A DNA stretch of 64,000 nt from NCBI GenBank assembly GCA_002688175.1, contig NZCC01000024.1:18126-82125 (forward strand). Direction: 5' to 3'. A model generated the notes under the pieces. That model was not told the DNA's origin. It did not search any database and worked only from the letters and a program-made list of their open reading frames with translations. Origin of the DNA: Chromatiales bacterium. GTDB taxonomy: Bacteria > Pseudomonadota > Gammaproteobacteria > Steroidobacterales > GCA-2729495. Positions within the stretch are counted from its first letter, which is position 1; each line of letters opens with the position of its first letter. Positions 10,906 through 53,159 of this stretch are shown here, in pieces. The translations under genes and the position numbers were made by a program.

Positions 10906-11358
10906 ATGCCAGTAAGCCAGCCCTTATCCTCCGACCCAGGCACCTATGCGCTGATCATGAGCTGCAGAAAATCATCCCGCCTGGCCGTCGGCAAGTTGGG
11001 CAACATGATGCTGCAACCCGGATTCTATATTTATGTTGGTAGTGCCCTTGGGCCTGGCGGCATCAAGGCTCGCGTTTCCCGTCACCGCCGCCGGAACAAG
11101 AAACTGCACTGGCACATCGACTATCTGCGCCGACAGACTGCATTGATTGAAACCTGGACCATGACAGGCACGATAAACCATGAACACGCCTGGGCCGCGG
11201 CCCTGACTAAAAAGTATGTAACTGCCTGCAACCGGTTCGGTGCATCGGACTGCCGATGTTCATCTCACTTGTTCTACACCGCCATCAGGCCGTCGCCAGA
11301 TATTATCGATGCACTATGCTGCGACATTGACAGCCGACTTGAAGTAAAAATATTTTAA
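10906..11358 (+). CDS. GIY-YIG superfamily protein (DUF123-like)
   Basis: 150 aa. GFYIYVGSALGPGGIKARVSRHRRRNKKLHWHIDYL matches the DUF123 pattern as I remember it. Confidence 0.6.
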   Translation: MPVSQPLSSDPGTYALIMSCRKSSRLAVGKLGNMMLQPGFYIYVGSALGPGGIKARVSRHRRRNKKLHWHIDYLRRQTALIETWTMTGTINHEHAWAAALTKKYVTACNRFGASDCRCSSHLFYTAIRPSPDIIDALCCDIDSRLEVKIF

Positions 11359-12887: not shown

Positions 12888-13475
12888 TCACAACAACCGC
12901 AAGAACTCTTCACGCGTCTGTGGCTGGGCACGAAAACTGCCGAGCATGCAGGATGTCGTCATAACCGAATTCTGTTTCTGGACACCTCGCATCATCATGC
13001 ACATATGCTGGGCCTCAATCACGACCCCAACACCACACGCATCGATCGAATCATTGACACAACTTGCGATTTGCTTGGTCAGCACTTCCTGGATCTGTAA
13101 CCGGCGCGCGAAATAATCGACGATACGTGCGATCTTCGACAGACCAATTACCTTGCCTTGTGGAATATAGGCAACGTGACACTTACCTATGAACGGCAAC
13201 ATGTGATGCTCACACAACGAGTACATCTCGATATTGCTCACGATGACCATCTCATCTGTATCACTCGTGAATACGGCATCGTTAATCAGATCAGCAAGAT
13301 TCTGCCGGTACCCGCCGGTGATAAAATGCAGCGCCTTGGCTGCACGTTTGGGTGTATCGATGAGTCCCTCGCGCTGTGGGTCTTCGCCCATAGCCACGAG
13401 GATTTCGCGATAGTTTTCAGTCATGCGCTGTATGTTGTCGTCATCTTCTGACACGTCATCGTCCTTTTGCTTCAA
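12888..13475 (-). CDS. folE: GTP cyclohydrolase I
   Basis: 195 aa. [40 protein letters not shown]. Located 54 nt downstream of the NRPS on the same strand. Confidence 0.9.
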
Positions 13476-13529
13476 TCTGAGTCTGAATGTAATGCTACGG
13501 CGGGCATACCTGCCAACAGCTGATCAATA

Positions 13530-16500
13530 TCACCGGATGACCGAAATTAACTCATCGCAACTATCCGAACCAGTTTCACGGCCAGACAAATGGGTCATCA
13601 AATCGGCGAACCCGGCAATCGTGGGATACTCGAACAGGTTAATCAAGGGCACTTCGATATTCAGCTGGTCTCGTATGCGGGCAATAACCCGGGTCGCGAG
13701 CAGCGAGTGACCACCGAGCGCAAAGAAATCATCATGCACACCAAGCGTCTCCAGTTGTAACACCTCTCCCCAGATCGACAGCAATTTGCCCTCCAGTTCG
13801 CTGCGCGCCGGTACCAGCCCTGTGCCTGCCTCACGATCAAACCGTAGCTCCGGCAAAGCTGCTCGCGCCACTTTACCGTTTGCATGGCGTGGCAATTCTT
13901 CCAGCCACTCGATCGCCTGCGGCACCATAAAGGCAGGTAATTGTCCTCGCAGGGCATCGAGGAGTGCGGCAGTAGCCGGCCTGTCATGCGCGGCAGTCAC
14001 CACATAGGCTATCAACCAGGGATCACCCTGCCGCTCGATAACCGTTACTGCACAATCGGCAACCCCAGGCAATGTGCCGAGCAGCGATTCAATCTCGGCA
14101 GGCTCGACCCGGTAACCGCGAATATTGACCTGCTCATCCCGCCGCCCAACATATACGATTTGACCGTCCGGCAAGCGCCGCCCGAGATCCCCGGTGCGCA
14201 ACATGGAACCGGGGCCAAAGTGCTCCGCTGTTGGTTGCGGTTGTCGCCAGTAACCGGGTGACAGGCCCTGCCCCGTCAGCACAATTTCACCACACCAACC
14301 CGGCACCCCATGATCGTCCAGCAACGCTACGTCGAGCCCCGTAACCGCAGCCCCGATCGGCACTGACTGGCCGACCAGCCGGGTATCCATATCGGCATGA
14401 AATTGCAACGCGAGCGTTGACTCGGTCAAACCTAACCCGTTGATAAAACGCGTGCCGCGTACAAAGCGCGAGCGATACAACTCAAAATCTGAACGACGCA
14501 CCGGCTCACCACCGAGCACTACCAGGCGCACGCCAGACAGATCGTGAGAACAATTCAGCTCTCCGCCGAATAAATAGCGATACAGTGACGGTGCCGCATG
14601 TACAACTGTGATGCCATCGGCAACCAGCGCCGTAACCAGCGCCGTATTCTCGATCAGACGCTGACCCCCGACCGCATTGTCGTAGCCTGAAACGTTGTAC
14701 AAGCAGACCGTAGCGCCATTTAACAACGCGCCGAAGATATCCTGAATAGCAGCATCATAAGCAAAACCTGACAATCCACTTAACCGGTCCGCCGGACTGA
14801 GATCAAGTGCCTGCGAATAACGTCCGACCTGGGTCACAACACCCTGGTGGGTCTGCATGACACCTTTTGGTGTACCGGTCGACCCGGATGTGTAAATGAT
14901 GCAGGCCAAAGCATCAGCCTCGATCGTGACCTGTGGATCTTCGGCAGTTGCTTTTCCATCAAGCTCGATAACCGGCAATAGTGATGCTGACAGTGCGTGA
15001 GCCTTATCGGCATGGAGGGGATCAGCGACAATCGCACCAAGGCCGGCATCGCGTGCGATCGCGACCAGTCGGGCCTCCGGCCAGGACGGATCAAGCGGCA
15101 CCCAGGCATAACCGGCCTTCAGGATTCCAACCAGACCGACGACCAGGGGCGTATCCGGCGCACCTATCAGGCCAATGCGCGGCACCTCCGGATCCGGGGC
15201 AAGTTCGAGCGACAACAGGCGTACAGCCAGCTTGTTGGCCTGCTCATTCAGCTCCCCATAACTCAATCTGCTGCAGCTTGAGCGTACGGCCATAGCCTTC
15301 GGTGCCTGGCGCAACCGAGCACCAAAATGGGTCAGGATGTTACCCGTCCAGTCCGCCTGCTTGAGCCGTTGCGGCTCAGTCAGCGAAGGTAATTCGTTCA
15401 GCCGAAGATCCGGATCAGCAACGAAAGTTTCCAGGAGCAGCACATAGTAATCAGTAAGTTCGCTGATCGTAGCTTCGGCAAACAGATCGGAATTGTATTC
15501 AAAGTGAGCAAACAGACCACCCACATCACTGTGCAGCAACTCGCTGATGCTGACGGTCAGGTCAAATTTTGCCAGACCACGATCGATACCCATTGGTGTC
15601 GCATCAAGCGCATCGAAATCGGTCGCCTGCACCGGTTCATTGTGCAGGTTAAACATGACCTGGAAGATCGGTGTGCGTCCGGTGTTTCGTTCAGGGCGCA
15701 GTTCATCGACGAGTTTTTCAAACGGCAGATCCTGATGCGCATAGGCATCGAGCGCTGTCTTGCGAACCCGTACAAGTAATTCGCGAAAGGTCGGATTCCC
15801 GTCAAATCGGGTGCGCAACACAAGCGTGTTGATGAAGAAACCGATCAGGCCTTCGAGTTCGGTTCGTCCGCGCCCTGCAATCGGCGTTCCGATGACCACG
15901 TCCCGGGTACCGGCATACCGTCCCAGGACCAGCGCAAATATTGCGGCCAGAACCATGAACAGCGTACTGTCCTCTTGCCGGGCAAGACCAGTAAGGGCAT
16001 CGGCCAGCTCAGCTGTCAATGACCGCGAGAGGCTTGCACCGCGATGAGACTGAACAGCCGGCCGGGGCCGGTCGGTCGGCAGTTCCAGCAACGGCGGCAC
16101 ACCTTCCAGTTGCTTCCGCCAATAGTCGATCTGTCGCGCCAGCTCTGCACCGGTCAACCGGTCATGTTGCCAGACTGCGTAATCAGCATACTGCACTGCT
16201 AACGGTGCCCATGACGGCAGCTCGCCACGCCGTAATGCATTGTAAGCCGTCGATAATTCTCCGAATAACACGGACATCGACCAGCCATCAGCGATGATGT
16301 GATGAATGACCACCAGCAACACCTGCTCATGAGCACCGGTGGTGACAATATGCACGCACATCAGTGGCCCGACATCAAGTGCAAACGGTTTCTTTGCCAG
16401 TCCACTCAAGCGGACCTTCAGTTCATCCTCCGACGTTGCAGATAAGGTCGTGTATTCAACATCAACCAACAGTTCAGCGGCAATCAGTTGACGTGGCACA

Positions 16501-19500
16501 CCACCGTCAGCGCTGAAGGTGGTCCGCAAAATCTCGTGTCGCGCCACGAGCGCCTGCACGGCTGCTGTAAGTGCATTGCGGTCCACTTCGCCAACCAGGC
16601 GCTGGCACCAGGCCAGGTTATAAGCGCTGCTGCCCGGCTCCAGCTGATCGAGAAACCAGAGCCGTTGCTGCATCAGTGAAGCCGGTGCCTGGGTGCGAAG
16701 ATGACTATCCCGTGCCACCAGCTGACCGGCACGGCCGGTAAACTCAAGCGCACACCGATTCGTATCATCTGATTCAAGCAAGCCGGTCAAACCCGCCACC
16801 GTCGGCTCATCGAACAAGGCGCGCAGCGGCAGTTCGACAGCCAGTACGTCACGAATACGCGCTACCAGCTGAGTTGCGAGTAATGAGTGGCCACCGACAG
16901 TGAAAAAGTTATCGTTCACTCCAACGCCGGGCAAGCCGAGAACATCGGCAAACAGGCCGGCCAGCGCTGCCTCCAACGGTCCATTGGGTATGTCCCGGAC
17001 AGATGCGGTATTGATGCTCGCAATGGAAACCGGATCAGGCGCCGGCAACTGACGACGGTCAACCTTACCATTCGGCGTGAGCGGTAAGGATTCGAGAGCG
17101 ACAAATAATGACGGCAGCATGTAATCCGGTAAGTGATCGCGTAATGCGACACGCAAGGCATCAGCATCGAGCGGTGTAGCAACCGGTACGACATAGGCAA
17201 CCAGTCGCTCATTGCTGAGCACCACAGCCGCCGCACTGATGCCGGCAAGATCACCCAGTACCGCCTCTATCTCACCCAGCTCAATCCGGAAGCCCCGCAA
17301 TTTGACCTGGCGATCAATCCGCCCCAGCAGTTCAAGCCTGCCGTCATTGCGAATCCGAGCCAGGTCTCCGGTACGATAAAGCCTGTCACCCGGCCGCACC
17401 GGATCGGCAACAAAACGTTCGGCGGTCAGTTCCGCACGTTCATGATAACCATCCGCCAGACCCTGCCCACCGATGTAGAGTTCCCCCACGACCCCGACCG
17501 GTACCGGCCTCATGCTGACATCGAGGACCAGGATTATCGTGTTGGCTATTGGCCGACCGATGGTAATTGGCGAGGATGCATTAAGGAGCCGCTCGCAGAT
17601 TGACCAGATCGTTGTCTCGGTCGGGCCATACATATTCCACAGCTCACCGCCTGCATCGAGCAACTGCCTGGCAAGCCCCCGGTCAAGTGATTCTCCGCCG
17701 CACAGGATGCGCAGACCCGGCAAACCACTCCAGCCGGCATTGAGCAGTAAACGCCAGGTCGCCGGTGTAGCCTGCATGATCGTCGGTTGGCACTCCTGTA
17801 CCAACGCACTGAGTGCAGGGCCATCACCGGTTGTCTCGGCAGGTGCAATGATAACGCTGGCACCAACGGTCAGCGGTAACAGCAATTCGAGCACGGCAAT
17901 GTCAAAACTCAAGGTCGTAACAGCGAGCAACCGATCACCCGCCTCGATACCGGGCTCAGTTACCATGCTCAGCAGAAAATTCACCACCGCCTGATGTCCA
18001 ATGCGCACACCTTTTGGCCTGCCCGTCGAACCCGAGGTGTAAATCAGGTACGCAACCGACGCATCCGGAGCCACTTCTTTACCGGTGCGCTCAACAACAG
18101 GCATCCGGATCTCCGCGATCCGACCGTCATCGGTTAACAATACGATTGCGCCGTCAAAAGGCGGCAAGGATCCACTGATGGCTGCCTGCGTGATCAGGAT
18201 ACCGGCACCCGAATCATCGAGCATATAACAGATGCGCTGAGCAGGATAGGTCCGGTCCAGTGGCACGTATCCGGCACCGGATTGCAACACGCCGAGCACT
18301 GCCGTCATCATGACCGGCGCTCTTTCGGTACAGATCGCGATGAACGGGCTCGCCGCTCGCGGTAACAATTCGACCAGGCACTCTGCCAGTGCCGCCGCAC
18401 GCGCATCCAGCTTGCTGTAAGTCCAGGCCTGATCCATGAACTCAAGCGCAATTGCATCCGGCATCCGTTGCGTCTGTGCATTGATCAGTCCGTGCACGGT
18501 CAGCTGAGTATCAACTACCCGCACATTCCCGGCCGTTGCAGCGAAGAGATCATGGTGTTGTTCCACCGACAGCAAATCGAGTTTATCTATCGACTGCTCC
18601 GGATCCTGCGTGATCGCCCGCAATAAGATTTCATAACTTGCAGCCAGGCGGTCTATGGTTTGTTCATCAAACAGGTCTGTGTTGTATTCAAGATTTACCC
18701 ATAACTCGTCTTCATACTCATGCGCCGATACAGTCAGGTCGAACTTTGCTGTGTCGACCGGACCCGCCTCACCCGGTTCTATATCGAGACCATGAATTGG
18801 CTGTGCCTCCCATGGCGTGTTCTGCAGAATAAACATCGTCTGAAACAACGGCGAGCGAGCCTGATCACGAACTGGTTGCAGGGTTTCAACGAGTTTCTCG
18901 AAGGGTAATTCCTGATGTGCGAATGCAGCCAGTGTCGAGCGCCGCACCCGGGCCAGCAATTCGAGAAAACCCGGCCGACCGGATAAATCGGTACGCAGTA
19001 CCAGCGTATTTACGAATAAACCAATCAGCCCTTCAAGCTCAGTGCGACGCCGACCCGCAATCGGTGACCCCACACAAATATCGTCCTGCCCGGTATAGCG
19101 TGACAACAACACATTAAATGCCGCGAGCATCACCATAAACAGTGTGCATGAATGATCACGGGCCAGCTTATTGAGTGCCGCCATCAGGTTGGCCGGCATG
19201 ACACGGGTCAGACGATGGCCGTTATAGGTCTGGTGCGGTGGCCGCGGCCGATCCGTCGGCAACGATAATTCTGCCGGGGCATCCGCCAGCGCGACACGCC
19301 AGAATTCCAGCTGCCGTTCCAGTTCAGGGCCGGCGAGCCAGTTTCGTTGCCAGATCGTATAATCTGCATATTGCACCGGCAATTCACTTAGCTGTGGTCG
19401 CTCACCGGCTGCCAGTGCAGCGTAGCACCCGGCCAGATCGCCGAACAAAACCCCCGATGACCACGCGTCCGACACAATATGATGACTGAGCATCAACAAC

Positions 19501-19889
19501 AGGTGCTCGTTCGCTATAATGCGTAATACGTGGACACGAAACAGCGGGCCCATCGCAAGATCAAACGGTTCAGCAACCAACTCGCCGACCCGTGCGTGTA
19601 ATACAGCGGGGCCCGACTCGGTTAACTCGTGCCATTGCACCGGCACCTCGACGGCGGCGGTAATAATCTGCACCGGCTCTCCACCGCGGTCCACAAAAGT
19701 TGTGCGCAGCGATTCATGTCGGGCAACCACGAGATTGACGGCATCCTGCAAGCTGTCGCGATCGAGGGGACCGGTCAGGCTGACCGGCAACCGGATCGTA
19801 TAGACGGTACTCGGCCCTTCGAGCTGATCGAGAAACCACAGCCGCTGTTGTACAAACGACAGCGGAAATTCATACCGTTCCGCACTCAT
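13530..19889 (-). CDS. nonribosomal peptide synthetase, modules 5-6 (C-A-T-C-A-T), no terminal TE/R/C domain
   Basis: 2119 aa. C: LSFVQQRLWFL, HHIVSDAWS (res 136-144). A: LIYTSGSTGRPKGV, NMYGPTETT, GKVDR. T: FFTVGGHSLL. Second C: SLMQQRLWFL (from about res 1071), HHIIADGWS. Second A: IIYTSGSTGTPKGV, NGLGLTEST, NGKVAR. T: FFALGGHSLLATRV. The protein ends about 30 aa after the last T domain. The start overlaps the upstream NRPS stop by 4 nt (ATGA). Confidence 0.95.
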   Translation of the reverse strand: MSAERYEFPLSFVQQRLWFLDQLEGPSTVYTIRLPVSLTGPLDRDSLQDAVNLVVARHESLRTTFVDRGGEPVQIITAAVEVPVQWHELTESGPAVLHARVGELVAEPFDLAMGPLFRVHVLRIIANEHLLLMLSHHIVSDAWSSGVLFGDLAGCYAALAAGERPQLSELPVQYADYTIWQRNWLAGPELERQLEFWRVALADAPAELSLPTDRPRPPHQTYNGHRLTRVMPANLMAALNKLARDHSCTLFMVMLAAFNVLLSRYTGQDDICVGSPIAGRRRTELEGLIGLFVNTLVLRTDLSGRPGFLELLARVRRSTLAAFAHQELPFEKLVETLQPVRDQARSPLFQTMFILQNTPWEAQPIHGLDIEPGEAGPVDTAKFDLTVSAHEYEDELWVNLEYNTDLFDEQTIDRLAASYEILLRAITQDPEQSIDKLDLLSVEQHHDLFAATAGNVRVVDTQLTVHGLINAQTQRMPDAIALEFMDQAWTYSKLDARAAALAECLVELLPRAASPFIAICTERAPVMMTAVLGVLQSGAGYVPLDRTYPAQRICYMLDDSGAGILITQAAISGSLPPFDGAIVLLTDDGRIAEIRMPVVERTGKEVAPDASVAYLIYTSGSTGRPKGVRIGHQAVVNFLLSMVTEPGIEAGDRLLAVTTLSFDIAVLELLLPLTVGASVIIAPAETTGDGPALSALVQECQPTIMQATPATWRLLLNAGWSGLPGLRILCGGESLDRGLARQLLDAGGELWNMYGPTETTIWSICERLLNASSPITIGRPIANTIILVLDVSMRPVPVGVVGELYIGGQGLADGYHERAELTAERFVADPVRPGDRLYRTGDLARIRNDGRLELLGRIDRQVKLRGFRIELGEIEAVLGDLAGISAAAVVLSNERLVAYVVPVATPLDADALRVALRDHLPDYMLPSLFVALESLPLTPNGKVDRRQLPAPDPVSIASINTASVRDIPNGPLEAALAGLFADVLGLPGVGVNDNFFTVGGHSLLATQLVARIRDVLAVELPLRALFDEPTVAGLTGLLESDDTNRCALEFTGRAGQLVARDSHLRTQAPASLMQQRLWFLDQLEPGSSAYNLAWCQRLVGEVDRNALTAAVQALVARHEILRTTFSADGGVPRQLIAAELLVDVEYTTLSATSEDELKVRLSGLAKKPFALDVGPLMCVHIVTTGAHEQVLLVVIHHIIADGWSMSVLFGELSTAYNALRRGELPSWAPLAVQYADYAVWQHDRLTGAELARQIDYWRKQLEGVPPLLELPTDRPRPAVQSHRGASLSRSLTAELADALTGLARQEDSTLFMVLAAIFALVLGRYAGTRDVVIGTPIAGRGRTELEGLIGFFINTLVLRTRFDGNPTFRELLVRVRKTALDAYAHQDLPFEKLVDELRPERNTGRTPIFQVMFNLHNEPVQATDFDALDATPMGIDRGLAKFDLTVSISELLHSDVGGLFAHFEYNSDLFAEATISELTDYYVLLLETFVADPDLRLNELPSLTEPQRLKQADWTGNILTHFGARLRQAPKAMAVRSSCSRLSYGELNEQANKLAVRLLSLELAPDPEVPRIGLIGAPDTPLVVGLVGILKAGYAWVPLDPSWPEARLVAIARDAGLGAIVADPLHADKAHALSASLLPVIELDGKATAEDPQVTIEADALACIIYTSGSTGTPKGVMQTHQGVVTQVGRYSQALDLSPADRLSGLSGFAYDAAIQDIFGALLNGATVCLYNVSGYDNAVGGQRLIENTALVTALVADGITVVHAAPSLYRYLFGGELNCSHDLSGVRLVVLGGEPVRRSDFELYRSRFVRGTRFINGLGLTESTLALQFHADMDTRLVGQSVPIGAAVTGLDVALLDDHGVPGWCGEIVLTGQGLSPGYWRQPQPTAEHFGPGSMLRTGDLGRRLPDGQIVYVGRRDEQVNIRGYRVEPAEIESLLGTLPGVADCAVTVIERQGDPWLIAYVVTAAHDRPATAALLDALRGQLPAFMVPQAIEWLEELPRHANGKVARAALPELRFDREAGTGLVPARSELEGKLLSIWGEVLQLETLGVHDDFFALGGHSLLATRVIARIRDQLNIEVPLINLFEYPTIAGFADLMTHLSGRETGSDSCDELISVIR

Positions 19890-25800: not shown

Positions 25801-28800
25801 ACAGAGTTGCCAGTTCATCGATAAAGATTCCGTTTGACAGCCCATCACTGACAATATGATGAATAACAACAAGCAGCAGAAATTTTTGTGGATCGCCCTG
25901 CAACACATCCAGACGCAGTAACGGCCCACGATCCAGAACAAATGATTGCGCGGATAACTCGGCCAGACGCCGCTCCCATTCCCGCGCATCACAACCGGTA
26001 AGATCTTCGCTGCGGATCGGTACCCGCTGATCAGGCAAAACTTCCTGATAGGGTCGACCATCGGTCGATAAGAACCGGGTGCGCAATATCTCATGACGTT
26101 GCACCAGCAAATCAACGACCGACTGCAATGCATCGAGATTCAGTTCACCGGACAGGTGAATGGTGAAGGCAATATTATATACAGGGCTATCCGGATCGAG
26201 TTCGTTCAGAAACCAGAGTCGCTCCTGGGCAAAAGACAGCGGTAACCGGTCTCCACGCTCGAACCACCCGAGCTTTATCACATCTGCAGCAGCATCAACA
26301 TTTGCCTGATTGGCCTGTTGCTGAAGGTGCTCATCAATATGTCGTGCCACCCCAACAATCGTAGGCGCATCAAAAAACTGGGCGAGATTCAGGCCAAGGT
26401 CGAAACGAGCCCGGATTCGTGCCAACAGTCGGGTAGCCGATAAAGAGTGTCCACCGCTATCGAAAAAATCATCATGCAGACCGACACGATTGAGGCCAAG
26501 GATCTCGCGCCACAGGACTGCGACAGCATGCTCGGTCTCAGTGCCCGGCGCGACGAACTCAACCGGCTGCCGCTGTTCGCCCACATCTGCCGACAGAAGC
26601 TTCGGCAAGGCCTGCAAATCAATCTTGCCACTCGGCGTTAACGGCATCCGATCTACCTCGATCAGCATGCCGGGCAGCATATAATCAGGCAAACGTGTTC
26701 TCAGGAAACTGCGTAACGCCTCCACTGGACTAATACCGGTATCCGTGAAGCCGGCATCCGCTGATTGCCAATAACCGACGAGCAACGGTTCGCTGCCGGG
26801 TCGCTGTCGAAGAACGACACAGGCATCACTGATCCCGGGATGATCACGTATAACGGTGGCGATCTCATCCGGTTCGATACGAAAACCCCGCAACTTGATC
26901 TGCCGGTCCGTACGACCAAGACACTCGAGGAGCCCGTCGGGACGATACCGCGCAAGATCACCGGTTCGATAAAGTTGTCCACTGCCACCCGCTCGGCCGT
27001 CAGTCACCGAAAAGGGGTCTGGTACAAATTGTTTGGTGTTGAGTTCAGGCTGATTCAGATACCCGGCGCCAAGACCTGCACCACTGACATACAACTCCCC
27101 GACAACACCGATCGGCACAGGCTGCAGCAAAGCATCCAGAACATAAGTACGTACGTTACCAATCGGCTTTCCGATCGGCACGATCGTTTCATCCTCGTCC
27201 CACAACGATGTATCAAAACAGGTTGCATCCCAGATTTCCGACGTGCCATAGGTATTCAGTAACGTCATGCCTGGACAGGCCCGGCGAAACCGTCGCAACA
27301 ATTCAGGGCGTAGTGGTTCGCCGCTCGTAATCCACGTGTGCAGCCCCGGCAGCCGGCGACCCAGGCGAGCATCGATATCCAATAACGCAGACAGCAGTGA
27401 CGGCACAACTACAATATGGCTAACTGTCTTGCCGACTACCTGCTCTCCCAGTCGCTCAACCAGCCTCGCCGGGTCGCTGACATCGACATCGGCAATTACC
27501 CGCAACGTCGCTCCATGCGTCAGCGGACCAAATATTTCCCAGACTGAATCAACAAAACACGGACTGGCTCGCAAACAAAAAACATCATCAACCGTGAAAC
27601 CATATTCATGCCACATCCATTCACAACGATTAACGGCCCCACCATGCAAACCGATCGCACCCTTCGGCATACCGGTTGATCCGGATGTATATAAAACATA
27701 AGCAGCATCAGCACTGTCACCCTCAATATCGGACACCACAGTATCGACACCGGGTCGGCTCCAGTCGATTTCATCAAGATGAATAGTATCGAGCGTGCCA
27801 CTGACGGAACGAGGCAGACAGCCGTCAGTAAGAATCATTTGCAGACCCGTCTGCGCAACAATAAATTGCAGACGCAGCGAAGGATAATTCGGGTCAAGGG
27901 GTACGTAAGCCGCGCCGGTTTTCAACGTTGCGATGATCCCGACGACAAGCTCCACCGAACGGCCGATACCTACCCCCACCAGGTCACCCGGACCGATACC
28001 ACGCTCGTACAGCTTGCCGGCTACCCGTTGCACACGTGCAGCAAGTTCACGATAACTAAGCGACTTATCATCATCAATAAGTGCAATTGCATCGGGGCTG
28101 CGCTCAACCTGCACTGCAAATCGCTCATGTAACTTGCCCGGCCCGGGATAATGACGACGTGTGTCATTCCAGTCGACAAGTATCTTGCTGCGCTGCCCGG
28201 GTTCAAGTAACCCAAGGCTGCCAACGAGTATCCGGGGGTCGCTGACAATTCCACGTAACAGCCTGGCATAGTGCGCCGGTATTGATCTGGCAAATGCATC
28301 GTCAAACCGCGCTGTCGAATAGCCGACATAACCACGTATTACACCGTCGTCCCCAAAATCGGAAACCGAGAATTCGATATCCCAGTACGAACTACGCGAG
28401 GTATTAAGTGTTTCCAGACCGAATCGCAGTTCGCCCCCCTGCCGGGTACGCTCGAACGCATCCTCATACAGGAACAGGATCTGAAACAACGGGTGTTCAC
28501 CAAAACGTCGCCGTGGATGCAATGCTTCCACGACACGTTCGAAAGGGACACCGGCATGTTGCAAAGCTGCCAATGCTGACGCCCGTTCGCGTACCAGCAC
28601 ATCAGCAAAAGATTCACCATCGGCCAGCTGGTTACGGAACATGACATTATTGACGAGGCACCCAACCATGTCTTGAGTCATAGCGGTATCGCGCGAGGTC
28701 ACAGGCGAACCGATCACGATGTCATGCTGACCGGAGTAACGCGTCAACAAAACCCGAAATGCGGCCAGCAATGTCATAAAAAGAGTTGCGTTTGACTGCC

Positions 28801-31800
28801 GTGACAACGCACGCACGCTATCCGCTGTCGCAGCATCGATGACAAAACCAATTCTGGATTGATTCCCATGCCACTGATCCTCGGCAACGGTAACTGCACG
28901 TGATGGCAATGCCGTGCGGTCCGGCGCATCCTGCAGTGCGCCACGCCAGAAATCCAGATCCCGTTCCCAGCCGTCACCATGCGACTCGGCGCGCTGGTGA
29001 ATCGAATAATCGCAATACTGCATCAGCGCAGGCAAGGGCTGATCAACTTCCCGGTAACCGGGCGACTCGTACCGCTGGGCAAGTTCATCACGAATGATCC
29101 GGATCGACAAACCATCTGCGATGATGTGATGTGCATTGACGAGTAACTTTGAATGCCGCGCCGACAATTGATACAGGCATGCATTAATCAGCGGACCGTT
29201 GGTCAGATCATAGCTCGTGCCAATAGCCGCCTGCGCCGCCGCCATAAACTGAGTAGCACCATTATCACCGTTGGTCGGGCTAAGTATGCTGACCGGAATC
29301 GACACGCTCTTGTGCGGCAAAACAACCTGCCGGACACCGATATCGGTTTCACGAAATACCGTTCGCAACACTTCATGACGTTCCAGTACAGCGTTCCAGG
29401 CCAACTCAAGCTGCTTGATATCGACCGACCCATCCAGCGGGATAACAAATTGCTCGTTAGAGCCGGTCATTGATGGATATAACTGATTTAAAACCCAGAA
29501 GCTTTGCTGTTGAAAAGACAGTGGCGCATCGTCATTTCCCGGGACGGGACTACTATCGACACTGTCGGCGACCGATGCATCACCCGAGTAGCGCACCGCA
29601 ATGGCGGTGCCATGATGCTCGCGCAGGTATTGACCAAGCCCGGCAACGGTCGGCGCATCAAATAAGGCAATCAACATGACAGCATCATCGAGCAGGCGTT
29701 GCAGTGCGCTCGTCATGCGAACTGCAGAAATTGAATCCCCACCGAGATCAAAGAAATTATCCTGGATACCAATATTGTCGACATGCAACATGTCCTGCCA
29801 AAGCGCGACCAGATCACGCTCCAGGTCATCACGGGCCGGCTCACCCGGCACATCTGAATTTCGCTCAGGTGCCGGCAGTGCCTGTCGGTCAAGTTTGTGG
29901 TTACTCGTCAGCGGCAATTGTTCAAGTTCAACCCATGCTGTCGGCAGCATATATTCCGGCAACCGCGCAGCAAGCCAGTGGCGTAATGGTTCATGCGCCA
30001 AACTGTCACCATCCGGGTGGTCGCTCGCCTCGTGCCACAGTGCCCGGTACAGTGGTGTACTGTTAAGCGCCGTTTCTTCGACCCGTGATCGATATTCGAA
30101 GTTTGCCTGCTGCCCATTATCGGTCGCGAATGAGGTTGCAACCCGATAGTCCGGATGAATACTAGGCACCCCGGTTATAGAATCGGCAGCCGGAATCCCG
30201 ATCGACCATTCAACCTCGATCGTGTCACCCTCATTTACCGGCACACCAAAAAGGTCACCGGTTTCACCCAGCGGGAAAAATACCGGTAACCACGCACGCT
30301 GAGTGCGACGATAATTCACATCAGTGTCGCCGCCTGTGGTAACCACGGTCCAGACGAGGTAACCATCGAGGCGGGCATCGCGAGCAATTTTCAGCCGGGC
30401 ACTACCGTGCGATGCGTCAGCTAACTCCCTGGTGAAATCAAGATCTTCGAAGACATGTGCAGCAGAAATAATCGCTGCTTCAGGCAAATCACTGATGCAC
30501 AGCCGGATATCGAAACGGCGGTCGAACCGGTCGAATACCTGCTCCGCATAGCGACTTGCCACAGGGCTGAAGGCCGGATCGGCAATAAGGCTTGCAGGCA
30601 ATTCAACGGCCGCAATTAGTGTGCGGCAATGTGCCGGCACCGGTACGCAGTCAGGAGCAAAATGACGCCGGGCACTATTCCAGATCGGCACAATGCCATC
30701 CGCACTGCCAATATTACCGATGATACCCTGGGTGCAGACATCAACTCGTTCAGGTAAATCAACTGATGCCATATCGCCCTGCATGACGATAATTCGGTCA
30801 GCCAGCCCCTGATCATTTATTAAAGTACGTGCTTTGCGATACGCATCTTCAAGTATCTCAACGGCGTATACTTTATGGGCACCGGCATCAATACACATAC
30901 GCGCCAATAGCGCATGCTCACCGGTGCCGATATCCAGCACCACCTTACCGCGCACCGAACGGTCAAATGCTTCGCGATAACTCTTTAGCCTCTCGGCTTC
31001 CGAACTCATCAGGTCGTAAAGGAATTCATCGTACAGTTGATAAGGTCCGACCGATGGCCAGAATTCGGGACGAGTAGCCGGCTCCGGTAACAACCCTGCA
31101 TGCGGAACGACATAGCCAACCAGCCTGGGCTCCCCGCCGTAATCAGATCGCAGGGCAACCGCAGCATCATCGATAGCGGGATGCTCCCGCAACACAGCTG
31201 CAATTTCGCCAGGCTCGATCCGGTAACCACGCAACTTGATCTGCTCATCCGTACGGCCGAGAAATTCAAGTTCACCCTCTGATGTCAGACGTGCCCGGTC
31301 ACCGGTTCGGTACCAGCGTGTCGCCTGGCACCCATCGATACTTATGGTGATGAATCGCTGACTGGTCTGCTCCTCCACACCAATATAGCCCCGGGCAACT
31401 GACGGCCCACCAACGAACAGTTCGCCGGCCTGACCGGTCGGTACCGGCAGCCATTCCTGATCGGCACATTCTTCACTAATAATCACCAGCTCAGCATGCG
31501 CCAATGGCCGGCCGACGCCGACTGCGACTCCCGCGCTCCGGTCTGCGGTTTCACAGGCCGCAAAGGTCAGCTGCCCGGCCGTCTCGGTAATCGCATAGGT
31601 GTTGACGATGCGCGGCTCAGCATCGCCGTGCTGCCGGAACCAGCGTTGCAACGCCTCTGTATCGACAGCCTCCCCGCTCAGCACCACACAACGTAGCGCA
31701 GTAGCTGCAATACCGTCAGCGAAAATATCGGATAACAGATTCTGCCGGAATGCGGATGGAGTCTGGCTCATCATCGTCACATGTTGCGAGCACACCAGCG

Positions 31801-32494
31801 CAAACAGCCGGGCGGGATCAGTCCGCAATTCTGGTGGCACGATGACGAGTCGGCCGCCGTGACACAAAGCGCCCCAGATTTCCCAAACCGAATATCCGAA
31901 CGATAACGGATGAAACATCGTCCAGACATCACCGGCATCAATATCGAGCCGGGCACCGATATCGTCAAACAGGGGAGCCAGATTTCCGTGAGTGACCATG
32001 ACACCTTTCGGTGCACCGGTCGAACCGGAGGTGAACATGACGTAACACAGATCATCAGAGGCGACGGGCATGTGCGGATCATCACTACCGGATGCCTTGA
32101 CCGGATCACTGTCCGCGTAAATGAGTTGTGCCGCGTGACCGGGCAGATCGGCCGCCGCCGTGGGCTGCGTAATGATAACGGCCGGTTCGGCCAGCTCGAG
32201 GATCTGCGCCAGCCGGTTAGTCGGCAGATCCGGATTCATCGGTACATAAGCACCGCCGGCCTTCATGATACCCAGCATCGCGGCAATCAGTTCAGCCCCT
32301 GGCGGCAGGTGCAGCCCCACGCGGACCTCGGCCACGACACCCGCCCCGATCAACGCATGCGCGAACTGGTTCGCCAGTGTATTTAAATCACCATAGGTCA
32401 GATGTCGCTCGCCGATAGTCAAGGCAACCACATACGGCCGCGACGCGGCGTGATTCTCGAATGACTCGTGCAGCAACATATCTATACCCGGCAC
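19886..32494 (-). CDS. nonribosomal peptide synthetase, modules 1-4: A(embedded MT)-T-C-A-T-C-A-T-C-A-T
   Basis: 4202 aa and no N-terminal C domain. A1: FTSGSTGAPKGV (154-165), SFGYSVWE (198-205), GRTDEQIKLRGYRIEPGEI (413-431), then a ~370-aa insert, then LPEYMLP (845-851), NHKLDR (865-870). T1: FFDLGGDS (914-921). C: HHIIADGLS (1122-1130). A2: YTSGSTGMPKGA. T2: FFDSGGHS. C: HHIVSDGLS (2212-2220). A3: FTSGSTGTPKAV. T3: FFDRGGHS. C: HHIIADGWS (3280-3288). A4: YTSGSTGAPKGV. T4: FFALGGHS (4136-4143). Confidence 0.95.
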   Translation of the reverse strand: MPGIDMLLHESFENHAASRPYVVALTIGERHLTYGDLNTLANQFAHALIGAGVVAEVRVGLHLPPGAELIAAMLGIMKAGGAYVPMNPDLPTNRLAQILELAEPAVIITQPTAAADLPGHAAQLIYADSDPVKASGSDDPHMPVASDDLCYVMFTSGSTGAPKGVMVTHGNLAPLFDDIGARLDIDAGDVWTMFHPLSFGYSVWEIWGALCHGGRLVIVPPELRTDPARLFALVCSQHVTMMSQTPSAFRQNLLSDIFADGIAATALRCVVLSGEAVDTEALQRWFRQHGDAEPRIVNTYAITETAGQLTFAACETADRSAGVAVGVGRPLAHAELVIISEECADQEWLPVPTGQAGELFVGGPSVARGYIGVEEQTSQRFITISIDGCQATRWYRTGDRARLTSEGELEFLGRTDEQIKLRGYRIEPGEIAAVLREHPAIDDAAVALRSDYGGEPRLVGYVVPHAGLLPEPATRPEFWPSVGPYQLYDEFLYDLMSSEAERLKSYREAFDRSVRGKVVLDIGTGEHALLARMCIDAGAHKVYAVEILEDAYRKARTLINDQGLADRIIVMQGDMASVDLPERVDVCTQGIIGNIGSADGIVPIWNSARRHFAPDCVPVPAHCRTLIAAVELPASLIADPAFSPVASRYAEQVFDRFDRRFDIRLCISDLPEAAIISAAHVFEDLDFTRELADASHGSARLKIARDARLDGYLVWTVVTTGGDTDVNYRRTQRAWLPVFFPLGETGDLFGVPVNEGDTIEVEWSIGIPAADSITGVPSIHPDYRVATSFATDNGQQANFEYRSRVEETALNSTPLYRALWHEASDHPDGDSLAHEPLRHWLAARLPEYMLPTAWVELEQLPLTSNHKLDRQALPAPERNSDVPGEPARDDLERDLVALWQDMLHVDNIGIQDNFFDLGGDSISAVRMTSALQRLLDDAVMLIALFDAPTVAGLGQYLREHHGTAIAVRYSGDASVADSVDSSPVPGNDDAPLSFQQQSFWVLNQLYPSMTGSNEQFVIPLDGSVDIKQLELAWNAVLERHEVLRTVFRETDIGVRQVVLPHKSVSIPVSILSPTNGDNGATQFMAAAQAAIGTSYDLTNGPLINACLYQLSARHSKLLVNAHHIIADGLSIRIIRDELAQRYESPGYREVDQPLPALMQYCDYSIHQRAESHGDGWERDLDFWRGALQDAPDRTALPSRAVTVAEDQWHGNQSRIGFVIDAATADSVRALSRQSNATLFMTLLAAFRVLLTRYSGQHDIVIGSPVTSRDTAMTQDMVGCLVNNVMFRNQLADGESFADVLVRERASALAALQHAGVPFERVVEALHPRRRFGEHPLFQILFLYEDAFERTRQGGELRFGLETLNTSRSSYWDIEFSVSDFGDDGVIRGYVGYSTARFDDAFARSIPAHYARLLRGIVSDPRILVGSLGLLEPGQRSKILVDWNDTRRHYPGPGKLHERFAVQVERSPDAIALIDDDKSLSYRELAARVQRVAGKLYERGIGPGDLVGVGIGRSVELVVGIIATLKTGAAYVPLDPNYPSLRLQFIVAQTGLQMILTDGCLPRSVSGTLDTIHLDEIDWSRPGVDTVVSDIEGDSADAAYVLYTSGSTGMPKGAIGLHGGAVNRCEWMWHEYGFTVDDVFCLRASPCFVDSVWEIFGPLTHGATLRVIADVDVSDPARLVERLGEQVVGKTVSHIVVVPSLLSALLDIDARLGRRLPGLHTWITSGEPLRPELLRRFRRACPGMTLLNTYGTSEIWDATCFDTSLWDEDETIVPIGKPIGNVRTYVLDALLQPVPIGVVGELYVSGAGLGAGYLNQPELNTKQFVPDPFSVTDGRAGGSGQLYRTGDLARYRPDGLLECLGRTDRQIKLRGFRIEPDEIATVIRDHPGISDACVVLRQRPGSEPLLVGYWQSADAGFTDTGISPVEALRSFLRTRLPDYMLPGMLIEVDRMPLTPSGKIDLQALPKLLSADVGEQRQPVEFVAPGTETEHAVAVLWREILGLNRVGLHDDFFDSGGHSLSATRLLARIRARFDLGLNLAQFFDAPTIVGVARHIDEHLQQQANQANVDAAADVIKLGWFERGDRLPLSFAQERLWFLNELDPDSPVYNIAFTIHLSGELNLDALQSVVDLLVQRHEILRTRFLSTDGRPYQEVLPDQRVPIRSEDLTGCDAREWERRLAELSAQSFVLDRGPLLRLDVLQGDPQKFLLLVVIHHIVSDGLSNGIFIDELATLYGCIADGREPALPTLPIQYADFSLWQRQGIKRPELDAQLNYWIEQLRDVPPALELPTDRPRPAEQMFRGAWLWRELSGERAETLRVFGRRHRCTLFMVLLGAFDVLLSRYSGQTDIVVGSPIAGRSWYELDGLIGLFVNTVALRTDLADNPTFSTLLTRVRRTTLDSQANQDLPFERLVESLRPDRTLSHAPVFQVMFNMTPIPDRTRNVAGVRMRNGRLQDHGVSTFDLTLNVGERADGLDLVFEYDRDLFDRQTIEQIATHFDYLLNAIVDTAETPVAALPLWPPEERAVLLDILNSPVGQNSNVQSDGKQSVHAQSVLALFESWVDRQPAALAVECEHIRLTYAELDRQANCVAGQLHAFGIEPGAYIAVCLERSVDLLVAVLGVLKAGCAYVPLDAGYPAARLADMFTVVQPRALITQVTAASALSFVSVPTILLDEDRVSLMRGALNRPDYQPLLTDPAYALFTSGSTGTPKAVAVTHGNLAAIFSAWQDTYALTADDRHLQMASFSFDVFTGDWVRALCSGGSLVLCPRFDLLEPARLFALLRDRHVTCAEFVPVVLRELLAWLAQSDADLAFMRLIAVGSDSWYGSEYAALATVAGPHTRVINSYGTAETTIDSIFFEALGDMKKHVMDEGFVPIGRPFAGSRVYVCDPGLRLVPPGVPGELCIGGAGVASGYIGEPELTAERFITDPFVPGGRLYRTGDRARYHSDGTLVLLGRMDRQVKLRGFRIELGDIEAALSRQPDIAAAAVIIDNVEKDRRLVAFIVPASGPISIDALRVALRGLMPDYMVPALFVELDTLPITSNGKVDRNRLPVPEQVSRHATACVEPSGPVEAVLLELYRDVLGISDIGVHDSFFDRGGHSLLATQLVSRIRDVLNTELPLRALFEDPTIAGLVAAIGRQVGGAPPPLHPLPRHASYTAPVSLMQQRLWFLALLEPDNPAYHLHWSVRLTGALDRSALSQAVDALVARHDSLRTTIGVPERAPEVEPLQHIAGRKSVRVEYPGSSRRLEDLIALPFDLSSGPLLRVHLLESESDQHILLLVIHHIIADGWSLSVLFDELSQAYNAYRCDEVPGWEVPGSAGLPVQYADYAIWQRKWLTGTELARQTDYWCNHLAEAPELLELPIDRPRPALQTHAGAWFELTIPAGLTAALHGVGRAENCTLFMVLMAAFDIALARFAGTTDVIVGTPIAGRSRTELEGLIGFFVNTLVIRASVDGNPTIRELLGRVKQTALDAYAHQDLPFEKLVEVLRPRRSRSYNPIVQALFAVHNQPVNPFAPDGLEVESINVSSNTAKFDLSVHVADRGGELQCGFGYNPDLFDVATIEAFADYYETILTAVSRDVGVRLSELGTVPVSIAEPDWTDNLVERFASQVHRAPQAIAVRTTDTALSYGELNALANGVAQQLLSLSLSSDARPPRIGLLCCYDERLVAGLLGVLKAGYTWVPLDPAWPAARLATIATDAGLAAIVTDPQHRQQAEGLCGAQLSPALLVDIAECRAAGDPVVNIAADTLACIIYTSGSTGAPKGVMQTHSGVVIQVGRYSKALRLRPSDQLSGLSGYAYDAAIQDIFGALLTGATICPLVVRSSGQHLFEQSIVVEQLATAAISVMHATPSLFRYLLSSYDSGSNVCDLSSVRTVVLGGEPVLRSDFELYRKYFARGTQFVNGLGLTESTVALQFMADHDTPLHGQQVPLGMPVAGLEVDLIDESGASSWYGEIVLSGTGLSPGYWGQTTLNTQRSGSVSSLRTGDIAYRRPDGQIVFVGRRDEQVNVRGYRVELAEIEATLSALRGVADSAARIWQRDDDLWLAAYVVAAPGVELQVDDLRAALAERLPAYMLPQSFDCLEMLPRLTSGKLARHELPAPRRARVAEPETARTALEVELVSIWSDLLQLETLGVNDDFFALGGHSLLATRVIARIRDQLDLEIPLAGLFDAPTVAGLVVLIETIRQDHPVPALTRIPRKNRRSS
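29975..31087 (-). other. PRMT-fold SAM methyltransferase domain inserted between adenylation motifs A8 and A9 of NRPS module 1
   Basis: About res 470-840 of the 4202-aa NRPS. GKVVLDIGTGEHALLARMCIDAGAHKVYAVE...RIIVMQGDMASVDLPERVDVCTQG...RRHFAPDCVPVPAHCRTLIAAVE, then a beta-barrel-like segment (RAWLPVFFPL...GDTIEVEW). This is collinear with protein arginine methyltransferase motifs I, post-I, II, III and the THW loop. Boundaries are approximate. Confidence 0.7.
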
Positions 32495-33225
32495 TCAAGA
32501 CCGATGACCGGCGGATTGTCCAGATACTCCTGCCAGTAATCGACACCGTGCGCCTCGATACCGGCCGGATCGAGCATGAGCGGATGCCATGCAACGCGGC
32601 CAAAACCGACATCGGTCAACACTTGTTCATAAGTCTGCCGTGCATAGTAATGCGCATGAAACTTAAACAGTTCACGTCCGGCGACCATGAAGTAGGTAAT
32701 CTGCGCGCCATCGGTTGCAGGCTTGTCGATTGTCTTGTTGAAACCATATTGCTCATAACCGCCATACTGTCCGGCCGCCTGATCAGGATTTTCATTGAGC
32801 GTTACAAAACGACCGGTCACAGACATATGGCGCTTTATATTGCGGCACATGCGCACAAGATCGGTGCAGCTCGGTGCGTAGTGCAACAGGTAGGCTGCAA
32901 CGATAACGTCAAACTCGCCGAGATCATCAAGCTCGCATACATCTGCACAGACAAAATCTATGCCCTGCGGATCATTGCGTTCCTGTTGTTCCGCCAGGCG
33001 AATCATCTCAACGGAGATATCGACACCGGTAACACTTGCAGCCCCGAGCGCCTTCAGGCGGCGCGAATAAAAACCTTCACCGCAAGCCAGATCCAGTACT
33101 CGCTTGCCACGAACATCGCCGATAAGATTTAAAAAGGTGTAGGCCTCGATGTATGCCCGCAGCGGCGATGATTTTGACCGCCGATATTGTTCGGCGATGG
33201 CATCGTACTGGCTTGCGCTTGGCAT
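32482..33225 (-). CDS. class I SAM-dependent small-molecule methyltransferase
   Basis: GKRVLDLACGEGFYSRRL (motif I), VTGVDIS, FDVIVAAYLLHY, plus a ~100-aa C-terminal cap. I prefer the Met at 33225 (MPSASQYDAIAEQY). The ORF-track start at 33282 would overlap the deaminase by 40 nt. The 3' end overlaps the NRPS start by 13 nt. Confidence 0.8.
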   Translation of the reverse strand: MPSASQYDAIAEQYRRSKSSPLRAYIEAYTFLNLIGDVRGKRVLDLACGEGFYSRRLKALGAASVTGVDISVEMIRLAEQQERNDPQGIDFVCADVCELDDLGEFDVIVAAYLLHYAPSCTDLVRMCRNIKRHMSVTGRFVTLNENPDQAAGQYGGYEQYGFNKTIDKPATDGAQITYFMVAGRELFKFHAHYYARQTYEQVLTDVGFGRVAWHPLMLDPAGIEAHGVDYWQEYLDNPPVIGLECRV

Positions 33226-33242
33226 TAGCTGACCGAACCAAC

Positions 33243-33722
33243 CTATCGACCGCCGGACCACGTTACAATCAGCGCACGACATTCCGCTGCAAGGCAGCCG
33301 CCTTCGAGTTTCAGCGGCACGAAGTTACCGGGCGATGTAGCCAGTTCGTTGCCGGTGACGGCATTCATGTCAGCAATCCCGGCCCCATAAACTATTCTGC
33401 TGACCCCGGCATAGTGACAGGCCGTCTGGCACATCAAGCAGGGTTCAACGGTTACGTACAACGTGCATCCGCTCAGATCGAGCTTGCGCAGCTGACGACA
33501 TGCCTCGCGAATAACCCGCATTTCGGCATGTGCGGTGATATCAAGTTCACCGATTACGGCATTACTCAGTGTTACAACAATCTCGCCATCCGCAACCAGG
33601 CACGCACCTACCGGTGGTTCGCCGGCCAGCATACCGCGTCGTGCTGCTTCAAGCGCCGCCAGCATGAAAACATCATGCGACGATGCACCGCTGGCAACCC
33701 CGGCTGTATCGACATCAATCAT
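33243..33722 (-). CDS. CDA-fold zinc deaminase, guanine-deaminase/TadA-like
   Basis: About 160 aa from Met at 33722 (MIDVDTAG...). Zn motifs [13 protein letters not shown] and [11 protein letters not shown]. The start overlaps the queD stop by 8 nt. Confidence 0.8.
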
Positions 33723-34089
33723 CGGGGCCCCGGTAGATGCATCCGGATGTACAGGTTTCGTTAATGACCACCCGTGACAATTGCGGCAGATCGGGCTTGA
33801 GGTGATCCCAAATCCATTTTGCCAGCACTTCACTCGTCGGGTTTTCCAGGCCCTCTATGTCATTCAGATAGTTATGATCAAGCTGCTCGAACAAAGGGGC
33901 AAACAATTTCTTGATATCCCCGTAATCCATAATCCAGCCAGACTCGGGATCGATATCACCGGCAACATAAATCCCACTCTTCCACGAATGGCCATGCAAA
34001 CGGGCGCACTTGTGCCCCGGTGGGACTCGCGGCAACCGATGTGCCGCCTCAAACATAAATTCTTTATATATTTCCATGCATATCTCCAA
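33715..34089 (-). CDS. queD: 6-carboxy-5,6,7,8-tetrahydropterin synthase (QueD/PTPS family)
   Basis: 124 aa, collinear with E. coli QueD as I remember it. [59 protein letters not shown]. Confidence 0.9.
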
Positions 34090-34324
34090 CCCCGCCCATC
34101 ACCGGGAGTCACATAACAAGCTTCGATGGCAGGGTCGTTCCAGAGGCTCCGACGCTTTTTCTGTCGTTATTATCGTCCGGTCATAGCCGGAAGTGATATT
34201 TTGCATCAGTAACGGGGGTCGCGGCCACCGGGTAACGGCCATACCGGCTGAAATGCATAATTTGGACGACCGGTCGCGGGCAAGATACCATTCATCCTCG
34301 CTGTACAGACACAATAGAACACTT
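34090..34324. promoter_or_regulatory. divergent intergenic region shared by the queD-NRPS-folE string and the F420 operon
   Basis: 235 bp between the queD start (34089, minus) and the fno start (34325, plus). It contains the direct 8-mer ggtcgcgg at 34217-34224 and 34272-34279. No promoter was mapped. Confidence 0.4.
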
Positions 34325-52387: not shown

Positions 52388-52404
52388 AGTTAGTACCAAC
52401 AGTG

Positions 52405-53141: not shown

Positions 53142-53159
53142 ACCGAAAGGAATAGTAAA

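Follow-up and report, generated by a model that had tools for sequence, protein, structure and literature searches.

Organization of the queD-NRPS-folE gene string

We analyzed a stretch of 64,000 nucleotides of contig NZCC01000024.1 from a Chromatiales bacterium (assembly GCA_002688175.1; the whole stretch is referred to below as the window), in which genes for the formation and predicted modification of pteridines adjoin those of a multimodular nonribosomal peptide synthetase (NRPS). Six consecutive minus-strand open reading frames (ORFs), queD, a deaminase gene, a methyltransferase gene, nrpsA, nrpsB, and folE, were found at the coordinates given in an initial annotation of this DNA, and their families were verified by Pfam and NCBIfam searches. 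The queD gene (33715-34077; 120 amino acids (aa) when started at the ATG at 34077, with 34089 as the start of the longest ORF; PF01242, 1e-36) encodes a 6-carboxy-5,6,7,8-tetrahydropterin (CPH4) synthase. It is followed by an ORF for a CDA-fold zinc deaminase (33243-33833; 159 aa from the ATG at 33722; PF00383, 3.5e-24) and by one for a methyltransferase of the ToxA/XrdM family (32482-33282, called as 32482-33225 with 247 aa; class I methyltransferase Pfam matches). The NRPS genes nrpsA (19886-32494; 4202 or 4197 aa, with the GTG at 32494 or the ATG at 32479 as the start, respectively) and nrpsB (13530-19889) were delineated by core motifs and Pfam scans, run per module for nrpsA. The string ends with folE (12888-13475), encoding a type IA GTP cyclohydrolase I (PF01227, 2.8e-75; TIGR00063, 251 bits against a cutoff of 182).

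The junctions were read from the sequence. The queD stop overlaps the start of the deaminase gene at 33722 by 8 nt (33715-33722), nrpsA and nrpsB share an ATGA at 19886-19889, and 54 nt separate nrpsB from the TTG start of folE, all in agreement with the initial annotation. The 13-nt overlap that it also reported between the methyltransferase gene and nrpsA stands if nrpsA starts at the GTG at 32494, and is replaced by a 2-nt spacer with the ATG at 32479. The latter start was chosen by gene callers on identical DNA, which also place the methyltransferase start at 33225, that is, 17 nt past the deaminase stop, and the queD start at 34077. Under either set of starts the genes are tightly packed. 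Promoter and terminator scans within the string yielded no convincing terminators and were uninformative on co-transcription. The arrangement is more than a chance one, since many genomes have it amid other flanking genes (see below).

QueD scores 103 bits with TIGR03367, above the equivalog cutoff of 89, and gives 184 and 192 bits with the enzymes of Escherichia coli (4ntm) and Pseudomonas aeruginosa (2oba), respectively. Its C-x3-HGH catalytic motif is present as CARLHGH, and we assign it to the genuine CPH4-synthase type (PTPS-I). The deaminase was initially described as guanine deaminase-like, which appears too specific, as its best structural matches are TadA (1wwr, 84 bits) and a plant guanosine deaminase (7dbf, 81 bits), whereas Bacillus subtilis guanine deaminase GuaD (1wkq) gives 63 bits, with an alignment that extends only to residue 118. 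With the TadA equivalog NF008113 it scores 90 bits, below the cutoff of 150, and therefore it is not the housekeeping TadA. We classify it as a generic TadA/guanosine deaminase-like member of the CDA family.

The free-standing methyltransferase is a full-length homolog of XrdM (8rdl, E = 6e-39, residues 6-245 against 4-241) and of Burkholderia glumae ToxA (5jdz, E = 1.6e-38), which methylate ring N-H groups of fused heterocycles. The substrate of ToxA is 1,6-didemethyltoxoflavin, an azapteridine with a uracil-like ring, and that of XrdM is a dithiolopyrrolone amide. An enzyme of this type would be expected for N-methylation of a lumazine ring.

No QueE (radical SAM) or QueC was found by Pfam and NCBIfam among the scanned ORFs of the window (most ORFs of at least 150 aa), and none was identified in the examined clusters of relatives. 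An Rfam search of the window gave no preQ1 or tetrahydrofolate (THF) riboswitch and nothing at gathering thresholds, the hits with E < 1 being noise only.

The NRPS and its loading module

The two NRPS proteins comprise six modules. NrpsA contains a loading module of an adenylation (A) domain interrupted by a methyltransferase and a thiolation (T) domain, followed by three modules with condensation (C), A, and T domains. NrpsB contains modules 5 and 6, both C-A-T, and stops after the last T domain; its ortholog in one relative (L175) has the identical architecture. All HHxxxD and GGxS motifs of both genes are intact. Neither gene encodes a thioesterase (TE), reductase (R), or terminal C domain.

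The core of the first A domain, A1 (31084-32494, minus strand), differs from those of ordinary amino acid-activating domains at the position that binds the alpha-amino group. In the alignment with LgrA, a glycine stands opposite the alpha-amino-binding Asp235 (Stachelhaus position 235, within FGYSVWE), and the YGPTE motif is replaced by YAITE. The manually derived specificity code is GYWSVSTGQK.

The C-terminal subdomain of A1 carries a PRMT-like methyltransferase domain (29990-31072, minus strand; approximately aa 475-835 of NrpsA), which is inserted after AMP-binding_C residues 430-467 and ahead of the A10 motif and aligns over 247 residues with PRMT6 (7p2r, E = 3.5e-15). Together with the ToxA/XrdM-like enzyme it makes up the two predicted methyltransferase activities of the initial annotation. 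Such an insert is not a novelty in itself, and was rejected as one, for PRMT-like inserts in the C-terminal subdomain of interrupted A domains are known side-chain O-methyltransferases, for instance LynB3 of lyngbyapeptin B biosynthesis (PMC10127204). Distant relatives of the present insert share 34-42% identity with it and are found in NRPSs, cyanobacterial and other, that have a tyrosine-like code. What sets the A1 clade apart from other PRMT-interrupted A domains is the combination of the lost Asp235, YA[IV]TE in place of YGPTE, and a changed double-E loop: this loop is replaced by TQGIIGNIGSADG (Q...D) in all 28 pteridine-linked homologs, whereas 23 of 24 unlinked ones keep it as SE...EG (E...E).

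The codes of the following A domains were compared with known specificity codes. A2 has VDWVISTDAK, with the aspartate moved to position 236, which we take to be a beta-alanine-like code. A3 (DVGEIVSIDK) presumably selects ornithine and A5 (DILQLGMIWK) presumably glycine, each agreeing at nine of the ten positions. A4 and A6, with DAQHVGG[VL]AK, were matched to no substrate. The A domains of modules 4 (19889-23074) and 6 (13533-16709) are near-identical and unusual, with GLGLTES in place of YGPTE and a GEIVL.G.GLSPGYW motif. Module 6, with one of these two GLGLTES domains, is the terminal module that lacks a release domain. With six modules, of which the first would load a non-amino acid, the expected product is a cap followed by five residues, that is, a pteridinoyl pentapeptide rather than the hexapeptide suggested earlier.

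Conservation of the string in related genomes

The GTDB species genomes were scanned with a profile of the PRMT-like insert, and the resulting loci were surveyed by tblastn. The deaminase and methyltransferase genes lie directly upstream of A1 in 27 loci with at least 45% identity of the insert, and queD is detectable in 25 of them. All 27 are from gammaproteobacterial metagenome-assembled genomes (MAGs) labelled Chromatiales or Chromatiaceae, and the string is present in at least 27 of these species-level genomes. Contig ends truncate three further loci. By the same tblastn survey, none of these genes was found at any of the 49 loci with insert identity below 43%, which come from other phyla (Cyanobacteria, Acidobacteriota, Longimicrobia, Chloroflexales, Methylobacter tundripaludum, Chitinophaga, and others).

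In the first four lineages compared, with deaminase identities of 58-100%, the queD-deaminase-methyltransferase-NRPS string stands opposite the coenzyme F420 genes npdG-cofE-cofD-cofC, with fbiC added where the contig reaches it, and the outer flanks differ from one lineage to another. The position of folE immediately after the last NRPS gene is shared by two other lineages, L175 and L176, where its orthologs are 87% and 79% identical, respectively. A FolE probe of JGI metagenome contigs retrieved only generic FolE loci, at identities of up to 76% and without an NRPS, and was uninformative on the cluster.

The A1 module belongs to a large family of homologs, most of which are free-standing A(PRMT)-T proteins of 930-1000 aa; separate C-A-T proteins come next and again bring the total to six modules. 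Some members of the family are encoded on closed 3.5-Mb MAG chromosomes. The pteridine-linked A domains all have FG[FY]S.[WF]E, that is, Gly235, with YA[IV]TE. The unlinked domains with readable motifs have FD..., YGPTE, and a tyrosine-like DAS...VC pattern, several others being unreadable. Thus the alpha-amino-binding aspartate is lost only in the pteridine-linked lineages, in support of the earlier proposal that A1 may load an unusual starter.

The PRMT-interrupted A domains of loci L041-L094, found in many phyla and in some cultured strains, form a second clade (for instance, Nostoc linckia NIES-25, L062; M. tundripaludum SV96, L088; Chitinophaga varians, L093). Given Asp235 and the tyrosine-like code where readable, and the double-E loop in 23 of 24, they are probably O-methyl-tyrosine modules.

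Gene fusions, replacement, and minimal loci

Because synteny inside one clade could simply be inherited, stronger evidence is provided by independent genomic contexts. In two proteins the deaminase is fused C-terminally to the A-T loading module (Rosetta-stone fusions): P0163 has the order A(PRMT)-T-deaminase-methyltransferase, and P0209 has A(PRMT)-T-deaminase. Locus L013 (8399-14416) encodes a fused A(PRMT)-T-deaminase-methyltransferase; next to it are a divergent PTPS and FolE2, a GTP cyclohydrolase of type IB (PF02649), which we interpret as a non-orthologous replacement of FolE. The minimal locus L178 (9099-13603) holds only a deaminase, QueD, and A(PRMT)-T-TE. In L179 (9317-13821), with a GC content of 32%, queD is located directly upstream of an A(PRMT)-T-sulfotransferase gene, followed by a C domain, a ketosynthase (KS)-T, and C-A-T-TE.

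The minimal and variant loci belong to unrelated genomes whose GC contents span 32% to 65%. The PTPS proteins of these variant loci all keep the C-x3-HGH motif, and their A domains all keep Gly235. Altogether, four unrelated architectures, found at GC contents between 32% and 73%, have a QueD-type gene beside a Gly235 A(PRMT)-T module. What stays constant is therefore the pairing of QueD with this module. The variant architectures L178, L179, and L013 suggest several different pteridine-derived products. The conserved neighborhood, the fusions, the replacement of the GTP cyclohydrolase, and the minimal loci bear out the initial proposal that the pteridine genes and the NRPS form one unit.

Proposed pathway and alternative explanations

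These comparative data support a pathway of the kind proposed at the outset, in which a pteridine carboxylate primes the NRPS. We estimate a probability of roughly 0.7 that the product of the cluster is a nonribosomal peptide whose cap is a pteridine carboxylic acid derived from GTP. That the starter is a carboxylate derived from the QueD product seems likely as well; for the specific N-methyl-lumazine cap we see about an even chance.

By established enzymology, FolE would convert GTP to 7,8-dihydroneopterin triphosphate, from which QueD would form CPH4, the only carboxylic acid on the FolE/QueD route. The CDA-fold deaminase may then hydrolyze the 2-amino group of the pterin (2-amino-4-oxo) ring, leaving a lumazine-type 2,4-dione, and the ToxA/XrdM-like enzyme, judged by its family, may methylate a ring N-H. 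A1, having lost Asp235, would adenylate the pteridine-6-carboxylate and load it onto T1, as suggested by the co-variation of the A-domain motifs with the gene neighborhood. The embedded PRMT-like domain might add a further methyl group to the tethered unit. Oxidation of the pteridine would be a further step, and oxidation, deamination, methylation, and loading might take place in a different order. The five C-A-T modules would add, roughly, a beta-alanine-like residue, ornithine, X, glycine, and X again. Release would presumably be in trans or non-canonical, given that TE, R, and terminal C domains are all missing.

Several observations weigh against this scheme. CPH4 is a tetrahydropterin, yet the cluster has no dedicated oxidase. 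The A1 code GYWSVSTGQK is unlike the fungal pterin code DVMVLLMITK and therefore gives no positive evidence of specificity, and the role of the A1 insert is uncertain because PRMT-like inserts are known as tyrosine O-methyltransferases. Not every member of the family would deaminate the pteridine, as no deaminase is seen in locus L179. QueD and FolE closely resemble housekeeping enzymes (184 bits with E. coli QueD; FolE is conserved at 87% identity where the deaminase reaches only 75-77%), and queD and folE of the string could be the sole genomic copies, serving queuosine and folate synthesis as well. Finally, much of the conservation in the main gammaproteobacterial clade may reflect vertical inheritance, and part of the folE-side flank (PAPS reductase, LysR/CysB, UbiA, SGL) recurs in L176.

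The alternative that survives best retains the pathway and changes its timing: the 2-amino pterin-6-carboxylate or CPH4 would be loaded first, deamination and methylation would follow on the carrier or after release, and the cap might be a reduced pteridine. We consider this a serious possibility, though not the one we would choose. In P0163 and P0209 the deaminase immediately follows the T domain, which hints that deamination can occur on the carrier protein, and the embedded methyltransferase must in any case act after loading. The absence of an oxidase and the adjoining F420/NADPH redox system also fit a reduced cap. The fungal study discussed below left the timing unfixed, and its A domain accepted pterin-6-carboxylate (PMC10549243). 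Against late tailoring, the deaminase and the ToxA-like methyltransferase are free-standing in the window, and the characterized ToxA acts on a free heterocycle.

A more far-reaching version, which we regard as unlikely, makes the F420/Fno operon an integral part that sets or cycles the oxidation state of the pteridine, so that the product is a redox-active dihydro- or tetrahydro-methyl-lumazinyl peptide, and takes the Gly235 A(PRMT)-T module for a widespread and previously unrecognized bacterial loader of 6-carboxypteridines. On this view, the fixed six-module product, conserved throughout a gammaproteobacterial lineage, would serve as a new cofactor, electron shuttle, or metallophore with a peptide-bound pteridine rather than as an ordinary variable antibiotic, and the loader would feed several assembly lines (TE-only, sulfotransferase-fused, and polyketide synthase (PKS)/NRPS).

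It is improbable, in our judgment, that the pterin is a cofactor or a separate small product and that the starter is instead an alpha-keto, hydroxy, or aryl acid methylated by the embedded domain. Loss of Asp235 is also typical of A domains for keto, hydroxy, and aryl acids, the known PRMT-like inserts are O-methyltransferases, and the A1 code matches no known pterin code. However, the conserved block contains neither a pterin-dependent hydroxylase or other pterin client nor an enzyme for an alternative starter acid; in the minimal locus L178, only the deaminase and QueD accompany the A-T-TE protein, and CPH4 is the obvious carboxylate; and the ToxA-like methyltransferase suits a fused pyrimidinedione substrate.

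The possibility that folE, queD, and the deaminase gene are housekeeping genes (for folate, queuosine, and nucleotide or tRNA editing, respectively) retained by ancestral synteny beside an unrelated NRPS, with A1 loading some other non-amino acid, draws on the ordinary appearance of QueD and FolE, whose conservation exceeds that of the other genes in the string, and on the partly syntenic folE-side flank, which suggests vertical inheritance, but is very improbable in view of the two deaminase fusions to the A-T module, the four unrelated architectures, FolE2 in place of FolE in L013, the deaminase score far under the TadA cutoff, and the lack of queC or queE among the scanned window ORFs and of preQ1 or THF riboswitches.

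Comparison with known systems

A few marine-derived fungi are the only known sources of pteridine- or lumazine-capped nonribosomal peptides, and a single pterin-activating A domain has been characterized. The closest known system, with shared logic and unrelated enzymes, is the penilumamide (plm) cluster of Aspergillus flavipes, which combines GTP cyclohydrolase I, formation of pterin-6-carboxylate, a deaminase, two methyltransferases, and an NRPS without TE, whose first A domain, with the code DVMVLLMITK, activates pterin-6-carboxylic acid and was described by the authors as the first known pterin-activating A domain (PMC10549243). The likeness extends to an in-cluster GTP cyclohydrolase I (here folE at the 3' end of the string), a deaminase with two methyltransferases, which in the fungus produce an N,N-dimethylated lumazine cap, and the missing TE. 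The fungal carboxylate, however, is made via dihydroneopterin aldolase and GMC, aldehyde dehydrogenase (ALDH), and FAD oxidoreductases, whereas QueD would supply it here in one step, and no FolB, GMC, ALDH, or FAD oxidoreductase was found in the conserved block. Further, the fungal A domain retains Asp235, where A1 has Gly235; the methyltransferases here are A-embedded and ToxA-like, unlike those of plm; an F420 operon adjoins the string; and the fungal product is a tripeptide ending in anthranilate, whereas five residues are predicted from the colinear bacterial NRPS.

Among bacteria, the Photorhabdus pepteridine cluster plu2792-2799 combines GTP cyclohydrolase I and a PTPS homolog with carrier and condensation machinery (PMC5384830). 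That system N-acylates a tetrahydropterin by means of an E2-like (pyruvate dehydrogenase) T-C fusion, with a pteridine reductase and a pyrophosphokinase and without an A domain (PMC5384830). These specific parts were not found here; instead there is a multimodular NRPS, for which the 6-carboxypteridine is the proposed acyl starter.

The preQ0/queuosine and toyocamycin-type pathways (FolE-QueD-QueE-QueC) have the first two steps in common with the proposed one. As neither QueE nor QueC turned up in the cluster or among the scanned ORFs of the window, we rejected a 7-deazapurine product; CPH4 would be diverted to the NRPS. A toxoflavin-like azapteridine was likewise rejected: toxoflavin arises from GTP cyclohydrolase II/RibD chemistry, and no GTP cyclohydrolase II, RibD, or ToxCD is present here, FolE and QueD standing in their place.

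In a full-text literature search the only lumazine peptides were fungal, and no NRPS from bacteria was connected with QueD or with a pterin starter, in line with the initial statement that no described multimodular bacterial NRPS with such wiring was known. We therefore regard the locus as a predicted bacterial analog of the fungal pathway, built around a new subfamily of loading modules. If so, bacteria have reached the fungal chemistry independently and by a shorter route, through diversion of the queuosine intermediate CPH4, and a fluorescent or redox-active metabolite would be conserved in abundant uncultured Gammaproteobacteria of sediments, soils, and wastewater reactors. Specificity predictors trained only on characterized A domains hold no bacterial example of the pteridine substrate class. 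The combination of Gly235, YA[IV]TE, a PRMT-like insert with the Q...D loop, and an adjoining queD gene could then serve as a signature for genome mining.

The F420 operon and the queD-npdG intergenic region

Divergently from queD, the plus strand carries npdG (34193-34999; start called near 34325, 224 aa), encoding an NADPH-dependent F420 reductase (Fno; TIGR01915, 195 bits, cutoff 150), cofE (35010-35777; 267 bits, cutoff 181), cofD (35774-36745; 329 bits, cutoff 257), cofC (36750-37433; 132 bits, cutoff 105), and fbiC/cofGH (about 37430-39820; 1121 bits, cutoff 1018). All five exceed the NCBIfam equivalog cutoffs, and we predict that they constitute a complete set for F420 biosynthesis, which was overlooked in the initial annotation. 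To our knowledge, F420 is uncommon in Gammaproteobacteria. Of the 26 loci that extend far enough upstream, 23 carry the F420 genes along with the queD string. They were not found nearby in the other three linked loci or in the distant variants L013, L178, and L179; in L013 none was seen near the fused module. A short-chain dehydrogenase/reductase (SDR) gene upstream of queD in L037 was considered as a substitute for the F420 set and rejected, being not conserved in other F420-less loci. Speculatively, the adjacent operon may control the redox state of the pteridine, and its co-inheritance hints at a testable link between deazaflavin and pteridine chemistry.

Two F420-dependent LLM oxidoreductases are encoded in the window at 54014-54976 and 54992-56032 (minus strand; TIGR03559, 370 bits, cutoff 335). 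Orthologs of this pair lie directly beside fbiC in L010, and Mer-like LLM genes occur in L010 and L014. They are possible clients of F420 or distant tailoring enzymes; with LLM oxidoreductases in the window, F420 probably has other clients in the genome.

The queD-npdG intergenic region (34078-34324) contains the box TGATGCA(A/G)AATA (34197-34208, minus strand), approximately 18 nt downstream of a conserved TGGC. Across six lineages with an otherwise 54% identical intergenic region, eight of its 12 bases never change and the remaining four hardly vary; the box occurs once in the window. Together with TGGC it is probably the queD-operon promoter. A second conserved block (GAGGCCGAATGGTATC ... 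CGTCCAAA) is located closer to npdG in four of the six lineages, and the two blocks are probably the divergent promoters. The sigma-54 reading of the box was rejected, the GG-to-GC spacing being about 20 nt and not 10, and a sigma-70-like -35/-10 pair is more plausible.

Other features of the window

On the folE side, the segment 168-8860 of the window and 11785-20561 of L176 have in common genes for an SGL lactonase-like protein, UbiA, a PAPS reductase, CysB/LysR, and a CysK-type PALP enzyme. As this sulfur-assimilation flank recurs downstream of folE in L176, the region appears to be in part vertically inherited. The amidohydrolase gene at 11396-12706 was considered as a pterin deaminase or release enzyme and rejected; it is not a member of the cluster, because the genes past folE differ in L175 and L176. 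Between it and hemB lies a gene for a small DUF123 (PF01986) protein (10906-11358, plus strand).

Adjoining fbiC, a 250-aa ORF (39909-40661, minus strand) matches only the C-terminal half (approximately residues 154-391) of methionine gamma-lyase/cystathionine gamma-synthase enzymes. It is also called at 250 aa in L001 and may be a truncated pyridoxal phosphate (PLP) enzyme or a pseudogene remnant. Elsewhere in the window, the regions 49880-53780 (plus strand) and 57385-62443 contain napA-like molybdopterin oxidoreductase, napB, and napC genes and two genes for pyrroloquinoline quinone (PQQ)-dependent dehydrogenases, each adjoining a DUF1838 gene. The periplasmic nitrate reductase and the PQQ-dependent dehydrogenases give the metabolic context of the host.

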